Source of the DNA: Alphaproteobacteria bacterium
Lineage (GTDB): Bacteria > Pseudomonadota > Alphaproteobacteria > GCA-2731375
Direction: 5' to 3'
NCBI GenBank assembly: GCA_965238305.1
Contig: CBDEHK010000001.1
Span: 1,298,391-1,362,390, forward strand
Length of the DNA stretch: 64,000 nt
Shown in pieces: positions 2,193-52,484 of the stretch. The position numbers were made by a program, and so were the translations under genes. The notes beneath the pieces were generated by a model that was not told the DNA's origin, made no database searches, and was given only the letters and a program-made list of their open reading frames with translations. How positions within the stretch are numbered: position 1 is the stretch's first letter; the number at the start of each line of letters is the position of its first letter.

Positions 2193-2342
2193 TTTTGTTT
2201 CATGTGATCGACCGTTTTTGATCGCATGGCTGATCTACTACATCCACTAAAAGAATATAAAACAAAATATAATTGCAATTTAATACAATCAATGATTTAC
2301 TGGAATTGAAGTCAAAATATACTAATACTTGGGGGGTCCGTA

Positions 2343-2978
2343 TTGCGTGTATTTTATTTATCTCGTGCAATGGCGGCGGCGCTAAGCGTTTGGACCATCC
2401 TACCCGGCTGCACGTTTGTCTACACTGACCCGATAGGAAATGATCGCATCGTTGGCTTGGCCGATGTTGAGATCACTGCCATGGACAATCCGCGCGGCAG
2501 TTTGGCCGGTCATTTAATAATTGTAAATTCGCTTGGGATGATAGTGGACACAAGTCGTGATAAATCTGGCTTTACCATTGGCTATACCAAGATAGCGATG
2601 GCCGGTTTGCAAAATTGTGCCTTATTCAACTTCGAGAGCGCACCGTCTGAATCCTCGAAGTCACAGTCGATTGAGTATGATGCCGGACTTTCGGTCGCAC
2701 GAAATCTCCCCGACAACGGCACCGGTTATTTTGGGTTGGTCAATATTACAATTCCTGGACCGGGACATGGCGGCAGTGTCGCCGGCAACCTTCTGGCGCA
2801 TGAAATAATTGGCCTTAGCATCGCTGAGCGGCCGCAAGGAACTGAGATTGTTATTGGATATTCCAGTTCAACGCTGGCGGCGATGAATAACAATGTTCTA
2901 GTCAGTCCCAATTTTGAAAACGTCGATTGCAACACGCTTGAGCCGTTAATCAGACAAGTAAAGCAGGATAAAATTTAG
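2343..2978 (+). CDS. hypothetical secreted protein / putative lipoprotein (island cargo)
   Basis: 211-aa ORF in the lower-GC region. Hydrophobic N-terminus ending ...WTILPGC, a lipobox-like LPGC. No recognisable catalytic motif. Confidence 0.5.
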   Translation: MRVFYLSRAMAAALSVWTILPGCTFVYTDPIGNDRIVGLADVEITAMDNPRGSLAGHLIIVNSLGMIVDTSRDKSGFTIGYTKIAMAGLQNCALFNFESAPSESSKSQSIEYDAGLSVARNLPDNGTGYFGLVNITIPGPGHGGSVAGNLLAHEIIGLSIAERPQGTEIVIGYSSSTLAAMNNNVLVSPNFENVDCNTLEPLIRQVKQDKI

Positions 2979-3016
2979 CGTATTGCTCGGACAACTATGA
3001 GGGTGGGTGAATTATA

Positions 3017-3937
3017 ATGAATTTCAGATATGTTTTTCTGCTGACGGTAGTTGCGGCGGCGTTATCCGCCTGTGCTAATACCGAACGTGTGCTCTTCGTG
3101 ACCTCCACACAGATTGGCATCGATGCGGATTCTAAAACACAAAGTGTAAGTATTGGCTACGACCGTTATGAGGGATATGTAGGCCCGGCCTATGAAAACG
3201 GTGGCTTACCGCCGGTGATTGCGCATTTGGAATCCAATTTGTCAGTATTCGATCCCAAAATCAGTCAGGTTTACGCCACGGGCGACGCCGCGCGATTGGC
3301 TGCCGGGCGCGGGCCAAAATGGTCCGAAAAACCGCTTTCCGGGAAAAAGAACATTACTTTTTTTGGCACCGGAACGAATTTCGGCTTGAAAGCGACATTT
3401 TCCAGTGAAGCGCCCGCCTTCAATCTAGGCTATAAACGACAAGAGTTTTCTTTAATTCCGATCGGCTCCGAAACCGAAAAAACAGAACCTGCGGTAAAAA
3501 ATACAACCGGCAAGCTCGAGGTCCCGGATCCCAAAGACCCAGACGGCAGCGAAGATATTTATCCGTCGGTCTTGGCGGCATTCGACCTGAACGTCGCGAA
3601 CAAAAGCTACGCCGGGACCGGCGCCGGCGTCAGCCAGTTTTTTGCCACCGGCGATGCCGCCGATTCTTTAGCGGTTCATCCCGATATCCGGGCGGCTTTC
3701 CAAAAGGAAGCGCGAGAGGCGATGAATATCCGTGATATCGATTGCGTCACCGGAACCGATGATGCTTCCAGCAAGATTCTGGCCTGGGTAAAATTGGATG
3801 CCAAGAACAAAAACACGTTGAAATCAATCGTTGAATCCGAATTTGGTAGCAATATCACGAATTGGGAGTTGATTAACTGCAAGGACTATGCCGACAAGCG
3901 TGCTTTGGTTCTAAAACGCCATAATTTAGCCCCATAA
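3017..3937 (+). CDS. hypothetical lipoprotein (island cargo)
   Basis: 306 aa. N-terminus MNFRYVFLLTVVAAALSAC has a canonical LSAC lipobox. Good RBS (GAGGGTGGGTGAATTATAATG). Lower GC than the surrounding genes. Confidence 0.6.
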   Translation: MNFRYVFLLTVVAAALSACANTERVLFVTSTQIGIDADSKTQSVSIGYDRYEGYVGPAYENGGLPPVIAHLESNLSVFDPKISQVYATGDAARLAAGRGPKWSEKPLSGKKNITFFGTGTNFGLKATFSSEAPAFNLGYKRQEFSLIPIGSETEKTEPAVKNTTGKLEVPDPKDPDGSEDIYPSVLAAFDLNVANKSYAGTGAGVSQFFATGDAADSLAVHPDIRAAFQKEAREAMNIRDIDCVTGTDDASSKILAWVKLDAKNKNTLKSIVESEFGSNITNWELINCKDYADKRALVLKRHNLAP

Positions 3938-9487: not shown

Positions 9488-9629
9488 CCTCAGGTAAGTC
9501 GAAAATCCCCAAATAGAAAGGCCAATTGCGTCGAATCACATAATGGTGAGCCATTGTTACTAGTCTCCGTGATCAGAGGCGTCCACATTGGGTCCGGGAA
9601 CATCAACAATCAAATTGAGGAGGCACCTC

Positions 9630-10928
9630 ATGTACGCTCAAAAGAGCAAACTATTATCATCGACAGTCATTCCGTTGGTCGCCGTGGCGGCGTTGTCATC
9701 GGCTGGCGTCATTACCATGGCAAATATCAGTTTCGCGGCCAGCAGCGCGATACCCAACAACCCAACCGCGGTATCACGCCCGGCAACGCCAGACGGATCG
9801 TACCAGGTCGCAGCCTGTACCGCCAAGAAAGCGTGTAATCCGTGCGCGACCAAAAAGAAAGGCTGTAATCCTTGCAACCCCTGTGGGGCAAAAAAAGCCT
9901 GCAACCCATGCAATCCTTGCGCGACCAAGAAAGCCTGCAATCCTTGTAACCCTTGCGGTGCGAAAAAAGCTTGTGGCGCCTGCAATCCATGCAATCCGTG
10001 CGGTGGTGCATCTGCTGCGGGGTTATCACAAAAATGCATGGTGCCGCGGTTGATGAAGGCATCGCTTTGCAATCCTTGCAATCCTTGTGCGGCGAAAAAG
10101 GCCTGCAGTCCTTGCGGCGCAAAAAAAGCCTGCAATCCGTGCGCAACCAAGAAAGCTTGCAATCCTTGCGCAACGAAGAAAGCTTGCAACCCTTGTGCAA
10201 CCAAGAAAGCCTGCGGAGCTTGCAATCCCTGTGGCGCCAAGAAAGCCTGCGGAGCTTGTAATCCTTGCGCAACCAAAAAAGCCTGCAATCCATGCAATCC
10301 CTGTGGCGCCAAGAAAGCTTGTGGAACCTGCAATCCTTGCGCAACCAAAAAAGCCTGCAATCCATGCAATCCCTGTGGCGCCAAGAAAGCTTGCGGAGCC
10401 TGCAGTCCTTGTGGCGGCGCGGCGGCACCTGAATTAACCGCGGCAGAAGCCAATTCGGTTTATGACTGCTTGAAAGCCGATATGGTCAAAGGTTATGCAA
10501 AATCAGGACTGAAAGACGCCAAACATTATGCCGATTGGGACGGTTATTCGACGCAGCCTTATGTTTCCGACACCCATGGCGGCCGCTATGTGTTCAATCG
10601 TGGGAATGCGCAGGCCAAATCTTACGGCAAATATGAAGCGGCCGGCCGCATGCCGGTCGGTGCAAAATTGGCGAAAGACAGCTTTGTCGTCAAAACCAAC
10701 GGTAAAGTGGGCTCCGGGCCGCTCTTTATTATGGAAAAAATGGCCAAGGGCTTCAGTAAGGCAAGCGATAATTGGCGGTACACGATGGTGATGCCGAACG
10801 GTCAATTGTTCGGGATGACCAACGGCAAGAATTCTGCCGGAATGAAATTCTGTTATGAATGCCATGCCACTGTTGCGGAAGGCCAAGATAGTCTGATGTT
10901 CCTACCGGACGATTATCGGGTCAATTAG
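9630..10928 (+). CDS. secreted Cys-repeat protein fused to a cytochrome P460-like c-type haem domain
   Basis: ATG 9630 follows a GAGGAGG RBS. Signal peptide, then about 210 aa of tandem KKACNPC(NPC)(G/A)(A/T) repeats with over 60 Cys, mostly as CxPC pairs. The C-terminal roughly 160 aa carry a single CXXCH (FCYECHAT) near the C-terminus and resemble the cytochrome P460 / c'-beta family. Confidence 0.6.
   Translation: MYAQKSKLLSSTVIPLVAVAALSSAGVITMANISFAASSAIPNNPTAVSRPATPDGSYQVAACTAKKACNPCATKKKGCNPCNPCGAKKACNPCNPCATKKACNPCNPCGAKKACGACNPCNPCGGASAAGLSQKCMVPRLMKASLCNPCNPCAAKKACSPCGAKKACNPCATKKACNPCATKKACNPCATKKACGACNPCGAKKACGACNPCATKKACNPCNPCGAKKACGTCNPCATKKACNPCNPCGAKKACGACSPCGGAAAPELTAAEANSVYDCLKADMVKGYAKSGLKDAKHYADWDGYSTQPYVSDTHGGRYVFNRGNAQAKSYGKYEAAGRMPVGAKLAKDSFVVKTNGKVGSGPLFIMEKMAKGFSKASDNWRYTMVMPNGQLFGMTNGKNSAGMKFCYECHATVAEGQDSLMFLPDDYRVN
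9820..10430. repeat. in-frame coding tandem repeats with 27-nt (AAAGCCTGCAATCCTTGCGCAACCAAG-like) and 36-nt units
   Basis: Near-identical units recur roughly 25 times in the sequence. They cause long spurious stop-free antisense ORFs (9638..10453, 9727..10428, 10087..10437, 9953..10261). Confidence 0.85.
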
Positions 10929-11724: not shown

Positions 11725-12609
11725 ATGGATTATGTCAGTTATATCGACAAGACCCGCGATTATTATCTCTCGCAAGGTTACGACAAACCCTATCAATGGG
11801 CGCAGCATGATCAGGTGCCATTTCAAGCGCTGGAAAAACCGCTCGCTGGGTGCAAACTGGCGCTCCTGACGACCAGCGAACTCGCGATCAAATATGACGA
11901 GGCGACGGAAGAAAATCCTATCACCGAAGAAGGTTTCCGTAGCGTCTATGCCATTCCCGGCGACACTCGAAGCGAACTTTTTTATAGCCGCACCAACAGT
12001 TTTGATCGTTACGCCACCCATCTGGATGACGTGAACAGCTATTTCCCGGTCGATCGCTTGCGCGAAGCGCTGGCGGCCGGCCGCATCGCTGACATCCCAG
12101 AACGCCTTTATGGTGCCTATAATAATTACAGTGTCAAAAAAGTTCTCATCGACGAAGCGCCAAAAGCCCTGGCGATGTGCCGGGAAGACAACGTTGATGC
12201 AGCAATATTGGTCCCGGTCTGACCAGTTTGCCATCAGACCGTGAGTCTGATTGCCCGCTACCTGGAAGAACATGGCATCCCAACCGTGGTGATCGCGACG
12301 GCCCGGGATATTGTTGAAAGCTGCAATGTCCCGCGATTTTTGTTTGTCGATTTTCCCCTTGGTAATCCGTGTGGGGAACCCTTCAATGTGGCGCAGCAGC
12401 GGGAAATCTTCGAAAGTGCGTTAGGTGTGCTGGAAAACGCGACAGAACCCGGTATCACCATCGAAGCCGGCTATCGCTGGAGCCAGGGCGAAGCCTGGAA
12501 AGATAGCATCTTTACCGAAGCGCAACCGTTCCTATCAGGTGAGGCCAAGCAGGCTTGGCTGGATCGCAAAGACAAATACCGCGAGTTGAAACAGAAAGGC
12601 GAGCTTTGA
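11725..12609 (+). CDS. glycine/sarcosine/betaine/proline reductase protein B (GrdB/PrdB)-family selenoprotein candidate with an in-frame UGA (Sec) at 12220..12222
   Basis: Track ORFs 11578..12222 and 12241..12609 are in the same frame and separated only by TGA. Read-through gives ...AAILVPV-U-PVCHQTVSLIARYLEEHGIPTVVIATARDIV..., a UxxC motif. The UGA sits in the 5' arm of a 7-bp hairpin GGTCTGA-CCAGTTTGCCA-TCAGACC (12216..12240). N-terminal MDYVSYIDKTRDYYLSQGYDKPYQWAQHDQVPF resembles the GRDB family. Start set at ATG 11725 after an AGGAGG RBS. Confidence 0.55.
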
Positions 12610-21189: not shown

Positions 21190-23260
21190 ACTAGCTATCG
21201 ACATCGGTGGGACCTTTACCGACGTCGCCATAGAGCGGGGAGAGGCCCGATGGACCACAAAAGTCCTGACCACGCCGGCACGCCCGGAAGAAGGCGTCGT
21301 TGCCGGGATCAAAGATGTGCTGGAAAAATCCGGCTTACAAAGCCAAATGGTCAGCCTTCTGATCCACGGCACCACATTGGCGACCAACGCGATTATTGAA
21401 CGCAAGGGCGCGTCGACGGCGCTGATTACCACTGAAGGTTTTCGCGACGTGTTGGAGATCGGTTACGAAAGCCGCTACAACCAGTACGACATCATGATTG
21501 AAAAAGCGGTTCCGCTGGTGCCCCGCTATCTGCGCCTGCCGGTGGCGGAGCGGGTCGATGTGCATGGCAAGGCACTGCTCCCGCTGGATGAAATGACCGT
21601 CCGGGCCCATATTCCTATCTTAGAAGAAGCGGGCGTCGAAAGCATAGCCGTTGGCTTCCTGCACGCTTACGCCAATCCGGTCCACGAACAACGGGCCGGC
21701 GAAATATTGCGCGGGGCCTTGCCAAAAGTTTCCATTTCCCTGTCCAGCGACGTTTGCCCGGAAGTGCGTGAATATGAACGACTGACGACGACCACGGCGA
21801 ACGCCTATGTTCGGCCGTTGATTGAAGGGTATTTGACCCGACTGGAATTAGCGCTGAGTGAGCTCGGCTTCACCTGCCCATTATTGTTGATGACCTCAGG
21901 CGGCGGTCTGACGACCTTGGAAACGGCAAAACGATTGCCGATCCGCTTGGTTGAATCTGGTCCAGCCGGCGGCGCCATTTTGGCCCAGCATATTGCCCGC
22001 CAAGCCGGCTTGGACAAGGTGATTTCTTTCGACATGGGTGGGACGACGGCTAAAATCTGCGTGATCGACGATTATAAACCGCAGAAAAACCGGGAATTCG
22101 AAGTCGACCGACAGGCCCGCTTTATGAAGGGGAGCGGCCTGCCGATGCGCATTCCAGTCATCGAAATGGTCGAAATTGGCGCCGGGGGCGGTTCCATCGC
22201 CCGGGTCGATGGCATGAAAAGGATTACCGTCGGCCCGGACAGTGCCGGTGCAGATCCCGGCCCGGCCGCCTATGGTCATGGTGGGGTTGAAGCAACCGTT
22301 ACGGATGCCGATTTGACTTTAGGTAAGATCAATCCTCAGACTTTCGCGGGTGGCAAAGTATTGCTTGAAACCGACAAAGCGGCGGCAGCGATCGCCAGCA
22401 ATGTCGGGCAGGCGTTGGGTCTGGACGATACCATCGCCGCCTATGGGATCTGCGAAATTGTTGACGAGACGATGTCGAATGCAGCTCGTGTCCATGCGGT
22501 GGAACAGGGCAAAATCGCGTCCGACCATACCCTGATCGCGTTTGGCGGTGCGGCCCCCTTGCATGTCGGTCGGATCGCGGAAAAACTCAGCATCGACCGG
22601 ATTATTGTGCCGGTGAACGCAGGCGTCGGCTCCGCCATCGGTTTTCTTCGCGCGCCGGTCGCTTACGAGGTGGTACGCAGCCGCAATATGCGACTAAAAG
22701 CTTTCGATCCCGATATCGCCAATCAAATCATTTCCGCCATGTTGCAGGAAGCCGAAAAGGTTGTTCGCGCCGGCGCGCCGGAAGAACCACTGGAACGGCG
22801 AATTTCTGCTTTCATGCGCTATTTTGGTCAAGGCCATGAGATTGTTGTGGCGCTGCCGGATCGTCCTTTAACCGACGATGACTGGCAAACCCTGCAAAGC
22901 GCCTTTGACGTTGAATATCAACGGCTTTACCAACGCAGTCTACCCAATGCGGAAATAGAGATTTTAACTTGGGCCGTTACGGTGACGACGCCAGAGCAAG
23001 AAGTGCAGTCGCTGGATATGGTAGCAAGCCAGAAAGCAGCGGCACCGATTGAATTGCGTGAGGTTTTCGATTCCGAAAGCCAAAGTAAAAAATCCGTGCC
23101 AGTTTATTGGCGCGACGATCTGTTGCCTGGAGCTGCGGTTGCAGGGCCGGCGGTGATTGCCGAAGATGAAACCGCGACTTTAGTACCGTCGCGATTTCAC
23201 GCGGCCATAGCCGGCAATGGCAATATAATCATAGAGCGACAGGCGGAGGCGGCGGAATGA
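21176..23260 (+). CDS. hydantoinase/oxoprolinase family protein, A subunit
   Basis: 694 aa. N-terminus MSDTKLAIDIGGTFTDVAIE is the HyuA/oxoprolinase-A signature. Overlaps the neighbours by a few codons (operon). Confidence 0.9.
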   Translation: MSDTKLAIDIGGTFTDVAIERGEARWTTKVLTTPARPEEGVVAGIKDVLEKSGLQSQMVSLLIHGTTLATNAIIERKGASTALITTEGFRDVLEIGYESRYNQYDIMIEKAVPLVPRYLRLPVAERVDVHGKALLPLDEMTVRAHIPILEEAGVESIAVGFLHAYANPVHEQRAGEILRGALPKVSISLSSDVCPEVREYERLTTTTANAYVRPLIEGYLTRLELALSELGFTCPLLLMTSGGGLTTLETAKRLPIRLVESGPAGGAILAQHIARQAGLDKVISFDMGGTTAKICVIDDYKPQKNREFEVDRQARFMKGSGLPMRIPVIEMVEIGAGGGSIARVDGMKRITVGPDSAGADPGPAAYGHGGVEATVTDADLTLGKINPQTFAGGKVLLETDKAAAAIASNVGQALGLDDTIAAYGICEIVDETMSNAARVHAVEQGKIASDHTLIAFGGAAPLHVGRIAEKLSIDRIIVPVNAGVGSAIGFLRAPVAYEVVRSRNMRLKAFDPDIANQIISAMLQEAEKVVRAGAPEEPLERRISAFMRYFGQGHEIVVALPDRPLTDDDWQTLQSAFDVEYQRLYQRSLPNAEIEILTWAVTVTTPEQEVQSLDMVASQKAAAPIELREVFDSESQSKKSVPVYWRDDLLPGAAVAGPAVIAEDETATLVPSRFHAAIAGNGNIIIERQAEAAE

Positions 23261-24909
23261 CCCAATCGATTGATACTATTCGGATGCAGGTGATGTGGAA
23301 CCGCTTAGTTTCCGTTGTCGAAGAGCAGGCGCAAACGCTTTTGCGTACCGCCTTCAGTCCGATTGTACGGGAATGCGGCGATCTTTCTGCCGGGGTCTTT
23401 GATCGTCAAGGCCGGATGTTGGCGCAAGCGGTGACCGGGACACCGGGTCATGTCAATTCGATGGCCGAATCCGTTGGTCACTTCATTCGCCATTTCCCCC
23501 TTGATGAGATGGCGGAAGGCGATACCTACATCACCAACGATCCGTGGATGGGAACCGGCCATTTAAACGATTTTGTCCTAACCACACCCTGTTTTTTGGA
23601 TGGCAAGCTGGTGGCGCTGTTTTCCTGCACTTCGCATATTACCGATATCGGCGGTTTGGGCAGCGGTCCGGATGGTACGGATGTGCATATGGAAGGCATC
23701 TATATACCGATGCTGAAACTGGCGGACCGGGGCAAAATGGACGAAACCCTGCTGGCGATGATCCGGCAAAACACCCGTCAGCGGGTGGAAACGGAAGGCG
23801 ATGTTTATTCCCTAGCCGCCTGCAATGACATTGGCTGCAAACGTCTGGTCGAAATGATGCAGGAATTTAGCCTCAAAGATTTAGACGGCATCTCGGAATA
23901 TATCTGCAATAATTCCCAAGCAGCGGTGTTGGCGGAAATTGCCAAACTGCCAAAAGGAACCTATCGAAATAGCATGACCATCGATGGCTATGACCATGCG
24001 GTTGAATTGGTCGCGGCCTTGACGATCAGCGACGATGGCATCGACGTCGATTTCGATGGCAGTTCGGTGATGTCGCGTTACGGGGTCAATGTGCCGGCGG
24101 CATACACCAAGGCCTATAGTTCCTATGGTCTAAGCTGCGTCATCTCGCCGGAAGTTCCAAACAATGCGGGCTCGCTGTTGCCTTACCGGATTTCCGCCCC
24201 GGAAGGGTCAATTTTAAATGCGCCCTATCCAGCTGCCGTCAGCAGTCGCCACGTGATCGGCCAGATGCTGCCGGACGTGGTCTTTGGCTGTTTGCATCAG
24301 GTCATCCCGGACCGGGTCCCGGCGGAAGGTGCGTCTTGTCTCTGGAACCTGACGTTTCGCGGTGAAACCGATCGCGGCTCCAATGACAGTCAGCTATTTA
24401 CCATCACCGCCGTCTGCAATGGCGGCACCGGTGGGCGCCCGATCAAGGATGGGTTGTCAGGTACCGCCTTCCCAAGCGGCGTCCGTGGGACGCCGGTGGA
24501 AATCAATGAATCTGTTGCGCCGTTGATTTTTCATCGTAAAGAGCTGCGAACAGATTCAGGTGGGGCAGGAGAATTTCGTGGCGGCCTGGGTCAAGTGATC
24601 GAAGTCGAAAGCACAATCGGTGCGGATTTTGAACTGCTGGCGGCCTTCGATCGCATTGATTATGGCGCCCGTGGCCGGGCCGGCGGTGGCGGCGGCGAGC
24701 AAGGCTTCGTCGGAATTCGCGATGGCCGAAAACTGCGCAGCAAAGGCACGCAGGATGTGAAGGCCGGCGAACGGGTGATATTTCATACCCCCGGCGGTGC
24801 TGGTTATGGCGATCCGAAAAAACGTGATTCAAAAGCCGTGGCGGGCGATTTGCGCGATGGGTTGGTAAGTGCGGCCGTCGCGAAGGAAATTTATCTTGCT
24901 GACAGTTGA
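23257..24909 (+). CDS. hydantoinase B/oxoprolinase family protein, B subunit
   Basis: 550 aa directly downstream of the A subunit, overlapping by 4 nt. ...ITNDPWMGTGHLNDFVLTTP... matches HyuB. Confidence 0.9.
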   Translation: MTQSIDTIRMQVMWNRLVSVVEEQAQTLLRTAFSPIVRECGDLSAGVFDRQGRMLAQAVTGTPGHVNSMAESVGHFIRHFPLDEMAEGDTYITNDPWMGTGHLNDFVLTTPCFLDGKLVALFSCTSHITDIGGLGSGPDGTDVHMEGIYIPMLKLADRGKMDETLLAMIRQNTRQRVETEGDVYSLAACNDIGCKRLVEMMQEFSLKDLDGISEYICNNSQAAVLAEIAKLPKGTYRNSMTIDGYDHAVELVAALTISDDGIDVDFDGSSVMSRYGVNVPAAYTKAYSSYGLSCVISPEVPNNAGSLLPYRISAPEGSILNAPYPAAVSSRHVIGQMLPDVVFGCLHQVIPDRVPAEGASCLWNLTFRGETDRGSNDSQLFTITAVCNGGTGGRPIKDGLSGTAFPSGVRGTPVEINESVAPLIFHRKELRTDSGGAGEFRGGLGQVIEVESTIGADFELLAAFDRIDYGARGRAGGGGGEQGFVGIRDGRKLRSKGTQDVKAGERVIFHTPGGAGYGDPKKRDSKAVAGDLRDGLVSAAVAKEIYLADS

Positions 24910-51020: not shown

Positions 51021-51052
51021 GCGTCGCGATTTGGCGTCAAGTCACAGATCAA

Positions 51053-51086
51053 AAGGCGGTTGCTTCCGGGCAGCCGCCTTTTTCGC
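51053..51086. terminator. bidirectional rho-independent terminator between the convergent thiolase and thioredoxin-like genes
   Basis: AAAAGGCGGTTGC-TTCCGGG-CAGCCGCCTTTTTCG, a GC-rich stem flanked by an A-run and a T-run. Confidence 0.55.
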
Positions 51087-51089
51087 GTT

Positions 51090-51524
51090 TTAGCCGGTAC
51101 AGGACGGCGCATCGGAGGCCCGTCCGGGGGCCTTGTCCAGCAGACTTTGTATTTTATTTTGGTTGGTTTCGGCGACCATGCGTGCGGCGACTTCGCCACC
51201 CGTCACCATAATCAATGTCGACTGACGTCTGACCGAAAACTCTATGCTGATCGGCGAACTGCTATGTTGATCCCAATCGACATAGAGGAAAGCGATGTTT
51301 TTGTCATAGTCGGAATTCGCAGCGCGTAATGCCTCGATCACACGGACCTGGCGTCGGCAAGTACTTCACCAGGAAGCGCCGAATTCGAGGAAAACAGCAC
51401 ATCCCTTCGCTTTCGCAGCCTCCATGGCCTGTGGTGAATACGGGATACTGCCCTTGCTGGCCTGCGCGCTAAAGGGCGCGGCAAGGGCCAGCGCAAAAAT
51501 CGACAGCAAAATAAATTTCGGCAA
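51090..51524 (-). CDS. secreted thioredoxin-fold selenoprotein candidate with an in-frame UGA (Sec) at 51368..51366 in a W-U-S-T-C active-site motif
   Basis: TTG start at 51524 after an AAGGAG RBS with 7-nt spacing. Product MPKFILLSIFALALAAPFSAQA|SKGSIPYSPQAMEAAKAKGCAVFLEFGASW-U-STCRRQVRVIEALRAANSDYDKNIAFLYVDWDQ...TLIMVTGGEVAARMVAETNQNKIQSLLD. The UGA lies exactly where the first Cys of the thioredoxin WCxxC motif is expected. The downstream region aligns with thioredoxin PTLLLFKNGEVAA. UGA is at the base of hairpin CCTGG-TGAAGTACTTGCCGACG-CCAGG. Track ORF 51090..51341 is the post-UGA part. Confidence 0.6.
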
Positions 51525-51544
51525 AATTCTACTCCTTTACGAAA

Positions 51545-52270
51545 TTACACCGAGACGGAGAAATCCTGTAACCAGATGGGTAGGATATCCAATAATTGGC
51601 CTTCCAGCCAATAGTTGAAGCCCAATAATATGGCCGTACCGACACACAAAAACGTGATCCCGAGAATGAGTTTGGCCCGATTCGCCAGTTGCTGGAGGGC
51701 AATTTGCCGACGAACAATGACTTCACGCGCACCGAACGCCAGGGCGATCATGACCGTCGAAACGCCTAGGGCGAAGAAACTCATGATCGCGCCGGCCCAG
51801 GCGATGTCTTGCCCTTGCGAGGCAAGCGATATCGCGCCGCCCAAGGTCGGTCCGATGCAGGGAGACCAAACCGCGCCCAACAGCACCCCGCCCAAAAACT
51901 GGCCGCGCAATCCGGTCATGCTATCCCCGGCGTCGAGTTGGCGCATGAGGATGTCCGCTTTGCCGGCCAAGTTGGCTGTTGCCGCGGCAAACTTCTCATT
52001 CATTTGCGGGACTAATAGGACAATGCCAAATCCGATCATCAGCCAGGCGCCAATCGTTGTCATGACTCCTTGATCAAGGCCGATGGAAGCGCCAAGAGTG
52101 ATCACAAATAACCCGACAACAACAAATGAAAAACTAAGGCCAGCGGCAAGTGCAATTGGCCCACGCCGATCGCTCTGCAACGAGGCTGCGAGCACAATTG
52201 GCAGAACCGGCAAAACACATGGGTTCACCAAGGTCAAAATTCCCGCCGCATAGGCCAACAACAATTCCAC
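51545..52270 (-). CDS. ccdA: cytochrome c biogenesis protein CcdA (DsbD-family transmembrane thiol-disulfide transporter)
   Basis: Conserved TM cysteines in LVNPCVLPVLP and WSPCIGP. The probable start is GTG at 52270 (MELLLAYAAG...). Ends 20 nt upstream of the thioredoxin-like gene. Confidence 0.8.
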   Translation of the reverse strand: MELLLAYAAGILTLVNPCVLPVLPIVLAASLQSDRRGPIALAAGLSFSFVVVGLFVITLGASIGLDQGVMTTIGAWLMIGFGIVLLVPQMNEKFAAATANLAGKADILMRQLDAGDSMTGLRGQFLGGVLLGAVWSPCIGPTLGGAISLASQGQDIAWAGAIMSFFALGVSTVMIALAFGAREVIVRRQIALQQLANRAKLILGITFLCVGTAILLGFNYWLEGQLLDILPIWLQDFSVSV

Positions 52271-52484
52271 TAGTAATAACTCCTGTAAGAACCGGTCATT
52301 GCCTCCGACACGATCATCTTCCGGCAGCAAAACAAAACCATACCATACCATAGGTAGCGAAACGCGCTTGCAACGTCACTTCAATTCCCCGCTACTATCG
52401 ATCGCATTAAGCAATCGAACCGCTATTTGTAGGTTTCTAAACAGCCTGCTAATGTTGTGATGAACTGCACAGGGAATAGAGTTA

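Follow-up and report, generated by a model that had tools for sequence, protein, structure and literature searches.

A ccdA-linked gene for a probably exported thioredoxin-fold protein with a predicted selenocysteine in its active site in an alphaproteobacterial genome

The stretch of DNA analysed here, 64,000 nucleotides (nt) of an Alphaproteobacteria bacterium (assembly GCA_965238305.1, contig CBDEHK010000001.1, positions 1,298,391 to 1,362,390; hereafter the window), carries on its minus strand a ccdA gene and, 20 nt beyond its stop codon on the same strand, a gene for a small thioredoxin-like protein whose reading frame is broken once, by a UGA codon. We consider it likely, at a probability of roughly 85%, that the two genes form an operon for CcdA and an exported thioredoxin-fold selenoprotein, in which the UGA is decoded as selenocysteine (U) and whose product would act as a periplasmic reductant fed by CcdA. 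A preliminary description of this DNA had proposed such an arrangement, with the active site read as W-U-S-T-C, and comparative evidence from related loci and proteins (numbered below with L and P) now supports it.

The frame that runs from 51524 to 51090 on the minus strand translates as L(TTG)PKFILLSIFALALAAPFSAQASKG...GCAVFLEFGASW*STCRRQVRVIEAL...APSCTG* and contains a single in-frame TGA, at 51368..51366 (Table 1). Its product begins with MPKFILLSIFALALAAPFSAQA followed by SKG, reads ..KGCAVFLEFGASW-UGA-STCRRQVRVIEALR.. around the interrupting codon and ends in ..DAPSCTG; public annotation presents the gene as two open reading frames (ORFs) of 52 and 83 amino acids (aa). The TTG start at 51524 with its AAGGAG ribosome-binding site, the signal peptide and the thioredoxin-like C-terminal region, all named in the preliminary description, were found in place. 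Cleavage of the signal peptide is predicted after A-Q-A, and the equivalent N-termini of the orthologues end in VQA or AQA. A match above the curated cut-off of Pfam PF00085 / PF13899 was taken as the test of a thioredoxin fold; with U read as C, the joined protein scored 36.6 bits against Thioredoxin_7 (cut-off 27) and 35.4 bits against Thioredoxin (cut-off 23.5), passing both. BLASTP also matched it to Escherichia coli TrxA (E = 4e-11), and in the alignment W52-U53-S-T-C56 pairs with W31-C32-G-P-C35 of that protein. The cis-proline was not found, as Ser102 (in Q-S-T-L) stands opposite Pro76 of E. coli TrxA. This serine, encoded at 51221..51219 on the minus strand, is invariant in the Q/R-S-T-L motif across the secreted thioredoxin family, Trxlp of Edwardsiella included. 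Serine in place of cis-Pro is a peculiarity of the family and gives no ground to doubt the thioredoxin fold.

The UGA had been described as lying at the first Cys of the thioredoxin W-C-x-x-C motif, and alignment with Cys-containing homologues, which cross the junction without a gap, places it at exactly this invariant residue. A word-index search with the joined protein returned the source's own 83-aa ORF together with W-C-S-T-C homologues, the closest of which, from Roseicyclus, is 44% identical across the UGA. When the 83-aa ORF was used in an exhaustive search, the two best matches were cut at exactly the same residue. Locus L073 consists of a DsbD_TM gene, a 52-aa ORF, TGA and an 83-aa ORF, and L074 shows the same split. 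A TGA at the same codon was found in the DNA of nine further lineages on independent contigs, some belonging to the window's subfamily (L073, L074/L075, L163-165, L166-168) and others to a second subfamily with the motif W-U-P/G-T/V-C (L155/156, L159/160 and two tandem genes in L161/162). A profile search added about 20 fragments of 81-85 aa, all beginning at the same residue, and three N-terminal fragments (P0265, P0266, P0275) that end in ..A-x-W. Over the 26 codons ahead of the UGA, comparison of the window with L073 shows 13 synonymous changes and only 4 non-synonymous ones, which indicates that the upstream part is translated in this frame. TGA is the ordinary stop of 13 of the 46 long ORFs in the window, so that the code is standard and not reassigned. 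Taken as a comparison of sequences, these data indicate that the UGA at 51368..51366 almost certainly codes for selenocysteine.

Several copies of the gene in other lineages show further variation. In L161 (also in L162) two tandem paralogues, at 2315..2713 and 2938..3351, carry W-U-PTC and W-U-GTC, each with a CGUGA-loop hairpin, and no ccdA was found within 2.5 kb of them. L154 (3..461) has TGA at the selenocysteine codon and in addition an in-frame TAG five codons upstream; its hairpin, with loop CGUGC, sits 39 nt after the UGA, beyond the usual spacing, and this copy may reflect faulty assembly or a gene that is being lost. A decayed Cys-form copy in L157 (647..1120) and L158 (387..860) has TAG at the Trp codon and degraded motifs, and follows a remnant of the CcdA C-terminus beside chorismate synthase and cytochrome c1 genes. 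P0027 and P0072 were considered as further selenocysteine forms and rejected, one being a Cys form truncated by the end of its contig and the other a pseudogene in decay.

The UGA is followed by a conserved hairpin that is a candidate selenocysteine insertion sequence (SECIS). Published criteria for bacterial SECIS elements (PMC13188914) are a loop of 3-9 nt with G in its first two positions and then U, an upper stem of at least 4 bp, a spacing of 16-37 nt and a free energy of -7.5 kcal/mol or below. The hairpin at 51352..51331 agrees with them, with the loop CGUGU, stems of 4 and 3 bp, a spacing of 21 nt and a borderline energy, when folded alone, of -7.5 kcal/mol (-7.5 to -8.1 across lineages). 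The same CGUGU hairpin occurs in L073, L075, L163 and L166, with one pair changed from G-U to A-U. The stretch CGCCAG(G/A)UCCGUGUGAUC is wobble-identical across five lineages between which protein identity is only about 55%, and third-codon-position identity is 8-9 of 10 in the hairpin against about 40% elsewhere. In the second subfamily the hairpin has the stem GCAC/GUGC and the loop CGUGA, 26 nt after the UGA; all verified selenocysteine forms have a C-G-closed hairpin with the loop CGUG(U/A) at 21 or 26 nt. Hairpins of the CGUG-loop type number seven on both strands of the window (128 kb), two of which sit 17 and 21 nt after its only two credible in-frame UGAs. The GTG at 51341, within the loop CGUGU, is the start codon that gene callers assign to the downstream ORF, and the downstream fragments P0019, P0020 and P0229-P0261 share their start residue (M/V-I-x-x-L-R) because the GUG lies in the SECIS loop.

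Other hairpins in the window were considered. The preliminary description had placed the UGA at the base of a CCTGG...CCAGG hairpin, and such a structure does exist in the window and in L163 (7 bp, -10.6 kcal/mol, with the UGA in the stem). It is not a conserved element, however, as it keeps three of its five outer pairs in L073, L075 and L166 (three of five orthologues), and as a SECIS (CCUGGUG..CGCCAGG) it was rejected for its 13-nt loop, its lack of UGA-to-loop spacing and this poor conservation. An 8-bp hairpin, CGUGUGAU/AUUACGCG, was likewise rejected, not being conserved in L075 or L166. On the plus strand, a 7-bp hairpin with the loop CGUGG (24477..24495) lies inside a hydantoinase-B/oxoprolinase-like ORF (23257..24909); no in-frame UGA was found ahead of it, and it is probably coincidental.

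The gene immediately upstream on the same strand had been named as ccdA, and this identification holds. Its product scores 47.1 bits against DsbD_TM (cut-off 27.1) and 31.5 bits against DsbD_2 (cut-off 24.9), and its translation contains the membrane-cysteine motifs of CcdA, of the NPC/SPC type, as LVNPC and VWSPC. The start is probably the GTG at 52270 and not the ATG at 52351, where the longest ORF begins; from this GTG CcdA has 241 aa, near the 242-247 aa of its orthologues. The ccdA and thioredoxin-like genes look like one operon. Of 90 related loci, 67 have a CcdA-like ORF next to the thioredoxin gene and in the same orientation; most of the others are short contigs. ccdA comes first in the closest relatives (L073, L076-L081, L163-165) and second in more distant ones; L165 belongs to the metagenome-assembled genome GCA_018661565.1. 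Among the selenocysteine forms this adjacency was seen in the window, L073 and L163-165.

A search of the related loci found no third gene conserved around the module across clades. In the window the neighbours are a thiolase and an acyl-CoA ligase gene, which are uninformative on function. L166, which has no adjacent ccdA, lies beside the cytochrome oxidase assembly genes SURF1, COX3, CtaG, CtaB and COX1, and the module of L163 is close to bc1 genes; these neighbours in two related lineages give a weak hint of a role for the selenocysteine thioredoxin in respiratory-chain maturation. In a soil metagenome clade of Cys forms (L098-L127), the thioredoxin and ccdA genes are flanked by genes for an extracytoplasmic function (ECF) sigma factor and for an AhpD/CMD-like protein with C-x-x-C-H, each in 9 loci, many loci being near-duplicates.

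A second gene with an in-frame UGA, encoding a PrdB/GrdB-like protein, is found on the plus strand of the window. It matches the PrdB model TIGR04483 with E = 3e-26, yet below the equivalog cut-off, and annotation would split it at its UGA. Among marine selenoproteins, UxxC proteins of the PrdB type rank with the most abundant, and the family is listed in marine surveys and in an inventory of 2026 (PMC13188914). We regard it as a probable second selenoprotein gene, and its hairpin of the same type offers indirect support that the organism decodes selenocysteine.

Table 1. Positions of the thioredoxin-like selenoprotein gene, ccdA and associated elements in the window, with the second UGA-containing gene
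Feature	Positions	Strand	Basis or remark
Selenoprotein gene, full	51090..51524	minus	144 aa + stop; translation, Pfam matches, orthologues with same split and TGA
Shine-Dalgarno AAGGAG	51532..51537	minus	7 nt ahead of TTG start; read from sequence
Putative Sec-pathway signal peptide MPKFILLSIFALALAAPFSAQA	51459..51524	minus	predicted cleavage after A-Q-A; sequence reading
Cys42 codon, motif G-C-A-V	51399..51401	minus	conserved only in the window's selenocysteine subfamily
Active-site motif W-U-S-T-C, UGA at 51368..51366	51357..51371	minus	aligned to invariant W-C-x-x-C of homologues
Candidate SECIS GCC-A-GGUC[CGUGU]GAUC-GA-GGC	51331..51352	minus	loop starts 21 nt after UGA; conserved
Cys142 codon, tail ..APSC-T-G-stop	51099..51101	minus	C-terminal fragments
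Terminator-like hairpin AAAAGGCGG..CCGCCUUUU	51043..51087	minus	3' of stop, common to convergent thiolase gene; -19.3 kcal/mol, z = -2.4
ccdA, membrane thiol-disulfide electron conduit	51545..52270	minus	241 aa from GTG after AGGAG; DsbD_TM match
PrdB/GrdB-like gene, in-frame UGA 12220..12222, motif VPV-U-PVCHQ	11725..12609	plus	profile match; hairpin
Hairpin AUCAGAC[CGUGA]GUCUGAU, 7 bp	12233..12251	plus	17 nt after UGA 12220..12222

The terminator-like hairpin listed in Table 1 was not called by a simple terminator scan.

Some points weigh against the selenoprotein reading. The insertion of selenium is itself deduced by comparison, and selA, selB, selD and a selenocysteine tRNA were not found in the 64-kb window; the tRNA gene, selC, can in alphaproteobacteria lie nested within selB (Mukai 2021, cited in PMC13188914). 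The hairpin is short (4 + 3 bp) and its energy lies exactly at the threshold; an unconstrained fold of the region favours another structure, and the z-scores are not significant. Pairs are standard in 24 of 24 cells of six distinct hairpins, with compensatory changes in three of four pairs, but these hairpins were chosen by their loop, so that the 100% pairing arises partly by construction. Rfam gave no SECIS match, at the gathering threshold or at E <= 10, for the hairpin at the thioredoxin UGA; because the PrdB-like UGA site was unmatched as well, this result says little. The region 51330..51375, proposed earlier for SECIS prediction, holds a conserved hairpin that fits the published criteria. 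Finally, ccdA is absent from the examined flanks of the selenocysteine lineages L075 and L166 and of L159 and L161 in the second subfamily: the link to CcdA is common, not obligatory.

Two additional cysteines mark the subfamily to which the window's protein belongs. Cys42 is invariant in the window, L073, L075, L163, L166 and the N-terminal fragments P0265, P0266 and P0275, and C-x or C-x-G forms the end of 22 of the subfamily's 23 C-terminal fragments. In the family alignment both Cys42 and the C-terminal Cys tail are absent from the Cys homologues. They are also missing from P0217 (134 aa, on an 878-nt contig), the closest full-length relative of the selenocysteine subfamily, which reads W-G-G-T-C with Gly at the selenocysteine position. 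If GGA were its Gly codon, this would be one base from TGA.

Alignment with E. coli TrxA puts Cys42 at the start of the strand leading to the active site, which we take to be the pole of the fold at which the C-terminal helix terminates. Since Cys42 would then lie near the end of that helix, a structural disulfide between Cys42 and Cys142 is the simplest reading of the sequence. A more elaborate proposal, which we consider rather unlikely, is that the subfamily represents a distinct four-residue redox device, more than a thioredoxin with selenocysteine in the place of Cys, in which the tail Cys would be a mobile resolving or shuttle residue, forming a selenenylsulfide with U53. It is modelled on the GCUG tail of thioredoxin reductase and on the fact that selenocysteine always occurs together with Cys42 and a Cys 1-3 residues from the C-terminus. 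The mammalian thioredoxin reductase ends in the redox tail G-C-U-G-COOH, and the likeness, as an analogy only, consists in a chalcogen redox residue paired with a Cys 1-3 residues from a Gly-rich flexible C-terminus. Here, in contrast, the selenocysteine sits in the thioredoxin active site and the tail holds Cys alone, and fold and electron source differ. Such a shuttle, if true, would imply peroxidase-like or substrate-specific chemistry, and could account for the ccdA-less lineages next to cytochrome oxidase assembly genes.

The N-termini also divide the family. Those of the Cys homologues and of the second selenocysteine subfamily are mostly twin-arginine-like (RRxF), whereas the window's subfamily has signals of the Sec type, and from these sequences it appears that one family uses two export routes. 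Twin-arginine-like starts (MKRRxF/L..) are seen in P0002, P0021-P0026 and others, in L159 (2297..) and in both tandem genes of L161 (2315.., 2938..).

Three other explanations of the UGA were weighed. It could be read through by a near-cognate or suppressor tRNA for Trp, Cys or Gly, the hairpin serving as a stimulator of read-through, an explanation that we regard as improbable. The selenocysteine machinery is unconfirmed in the source genome, and this position is occupied by Gly in P0217 and by Trp in P0033, which both speak for it. However, the codon coincides exactly with the catalytic Cys of a redox motif, as is characteristic of Cys/selenocysteine pairs, and Trp or Gly at the nucleophile would inactivate the enzyme. 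The hairpin moreover matches the SECIS model in its spacing and in the G-U of its loop, and the PrdB-like gene, of a known selenoprotein family, has the same hairpin type in the same window.

Still less probable is that the UGA is a true stop, separating an exported 52-aa peptide from an 83-aa protein started at the GUG. All public annotations found do call the locus as two ORFs and the GUG is conserved, but it has no Shine-Dalgarno sequence ahead of it and owes its conservation to its place in the hairpin loop. The 83-aa product would be devoid of active site, first beta-strands and signal peptide, and full-length Cys homologues can be aligned over the junction. On either side of the UGA, Cys42 and the C-terminal Cys occur throughout the subfamily and are both lacking in P0217, which has no selenocysteine. 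The preliminary description had noted that conservation of only the downstream part would point to a genuine stop; the constraint seen on both sides of the UGA contradicts this.

Least probable of all, and very hard to sustain, is that the TGA arose by faulty sequencing or by a recent nonsense mutation, the locus being a pseudogene of a Cys-type thioredoxin. TGA is one base from TGC or TGT, as the preliminary description had recognised, and decayed copies of the family exist (TAG at the Trp codon in L157/L158, further defects in L081, the extra TAG in L154). Against this stand the recurrence of the TGA in nine other lineages, which come from different samples and assemblers, the identical truncation of about 20 further entries, strong purifying selection on both sides of the TGA and the conserved hairpin downstream of it. 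The comparative TGA data together with the coding constraint make sequencing error, pseudogene and two-ORF readings very unlikely.

With the UGA read as selenocysteine, the protein can be compared with known systems. Thioredoxin-fold selenoproteins with UxxC have long been predicted, from bacterial genomes as well as from the Sargasso Sea (2005) and Global Ocean Sampling (GOS, 2008) data, and were inventoried in 2026 (PMC13188914). The known kinds include Treponema denticola Trx, the Trx-like 1/2/3 families and a 'thiol:disulfide interchange protein' (PMC13188914), and one selenocysteine thioredoxin has been characterised. Like the marine Trx-like selenoproteins, the window's protein would have a thioredoxin fold with selenocysteine first in UxxC, an in-coding SECIS just after the UGA and many Cys homologues, and those proteins too are of marine bacterial origin. 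Its motif and COG/Pfam class agree with the 'Trx-like' families of the GOS and Sargasso data. It differs from them by a predicted cleaved signal peptide, the operon link to ccdA, Ser in place of cis-Pro and the two extra conserved cysteines of its subfamily. The 2026 inventory makes no mention of a CcdA partner (PMC13188914). No selenoprotein-specific NCBIfam model matches the window's thioredoxin, and the motifs VDWD, RRSTL and RQSTL were not found in the accessible part of the GOS sequence supplement.

In the CcdA-dependent extracytoplasmic pathways, CcdA acts with ResA, CcmG/HelX, TlpA, StoA or Etrx, and fused forms are DsbD and mycobacterial DipZ. As in these systems, a two-Cys CcdA-type membrane protein is encoded beside an exported thioredoxin-fold partner. 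Unlike those of the CcdA/TlpA/ResA pathways, the partner predicted here would be soluble, of about 122 aa after removal of a cleavable signal, and not membrane-anchored, with selenocysteine as its nucleophile. No cytochrome c maturation genes were found in the window. A comparison with TlpA, ResA and DsbE proteins had been suggested, and the protein proved not to be a member of these families (including CcmG), its NCBIfam scores of 20 bits for TlpA (cut-off 230) and 18.1 for ResA (cut-off 170) falling far short; Pfam Redoxin and AhpC-TSA were both below their cut-offs. Canonical TrxA or TrxC was also rejected (TIGR01068, 37.9 against 96.8; TrxA, 27.1 against 138; TrxC, 22.1 against 125).

TsoB (NF045694), a rhodanese/DsbD fusion-like selenoprotein, also brings together selenocysteine, a thioredoxin-like region and a membrane domain of the DsbD type. 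All of these lie in one fused polypeptide, which further has a rhodanese domain and a UxxxxU motif. The window's proteins match the TsoB model weakly, CcdA over positions 180-357 and the thioredoxin over 459-496. Membership was rejected, as the scores of 19.3 and 24.1 bits fall below the cut-off of 805, the two genes of the window are separate and a rhodanese domain is absent.

By its sequence, the protein is assigned to a small secreted thioredoxin family whose nearest structure is Trxlp of Edwardsiella piscicida (PDB 5ZPV, 5ZF2), the closest solved structure by sequence (E = 7e-11 with the single sequence, 8e-29 with the family profile). The two share the W-C-x-x-C position, the Q-S-T-L-I motif and overall length, and Trxlp differs in having Cys where selenocysteine is predicted here and in being without Cys42 and the C-terminal Cys tail. 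Trxlp is described as a virulence effector that acts inside host cells (PMC6636751).

The mechanism that we propose would run as follows. The UGA would be decoded as selenocysteine under the direction of the CGUGU-loop hairpin, and the protein would be exported by its Sec signal peptide to the periplasm as the mature form, where selenocysteine would take the place of the exposed nucleophilic N-terminal Cys of the thioredoxin motif. CcdA, by analogy, would carry electrons from cytoplasmic thioredoxin across the membrane through its NPC/SPC cysteines and reduce the Se-S bond of the oxidised partner. The partner's selenolate would then attack disulfides or other oxidised sulfur species of periplasmic substrates, outpacing a thiolate and working at lower pH. 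To judge from the gene neighbours in two related lineages, these substrates may be respiratory-chain assembly factors.

Elsewhere in the window, an ORF of 446 aa on the plus strand (9588..10928) has a signal-like N-terminus, a long tract of Cys-rich repeats (..KKACNPCNPCATKKACNPC..) and then a C-terminal domain free of repeats; the mirror ORFs opposite it result from the Cys-rich repeat.

No current view is overturned by this gene, as thioredoxin-fold UxxC proteins are the commonest kind of predicted marine selenoprotein; the finding is real, well supported, useful for annotation and only moderately surprising. Public data systematically mis-annotate the gene and its relatives, giving a pair of hypothetical ORFs (about 52 and 83 aa) in their place, and the GUG start in the SECIS loop could serve as a signature for retrieving the family in full. 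Cys42 together with the C-terminal Cys tail raises a concrete structural question that can be tested. The family would extend the use of selenocysteine to the CcdA branch of the periplasmic reducing pathways, where a selenolate partner would be a faster reductant, active at lower pH, in an oxidising compartment.

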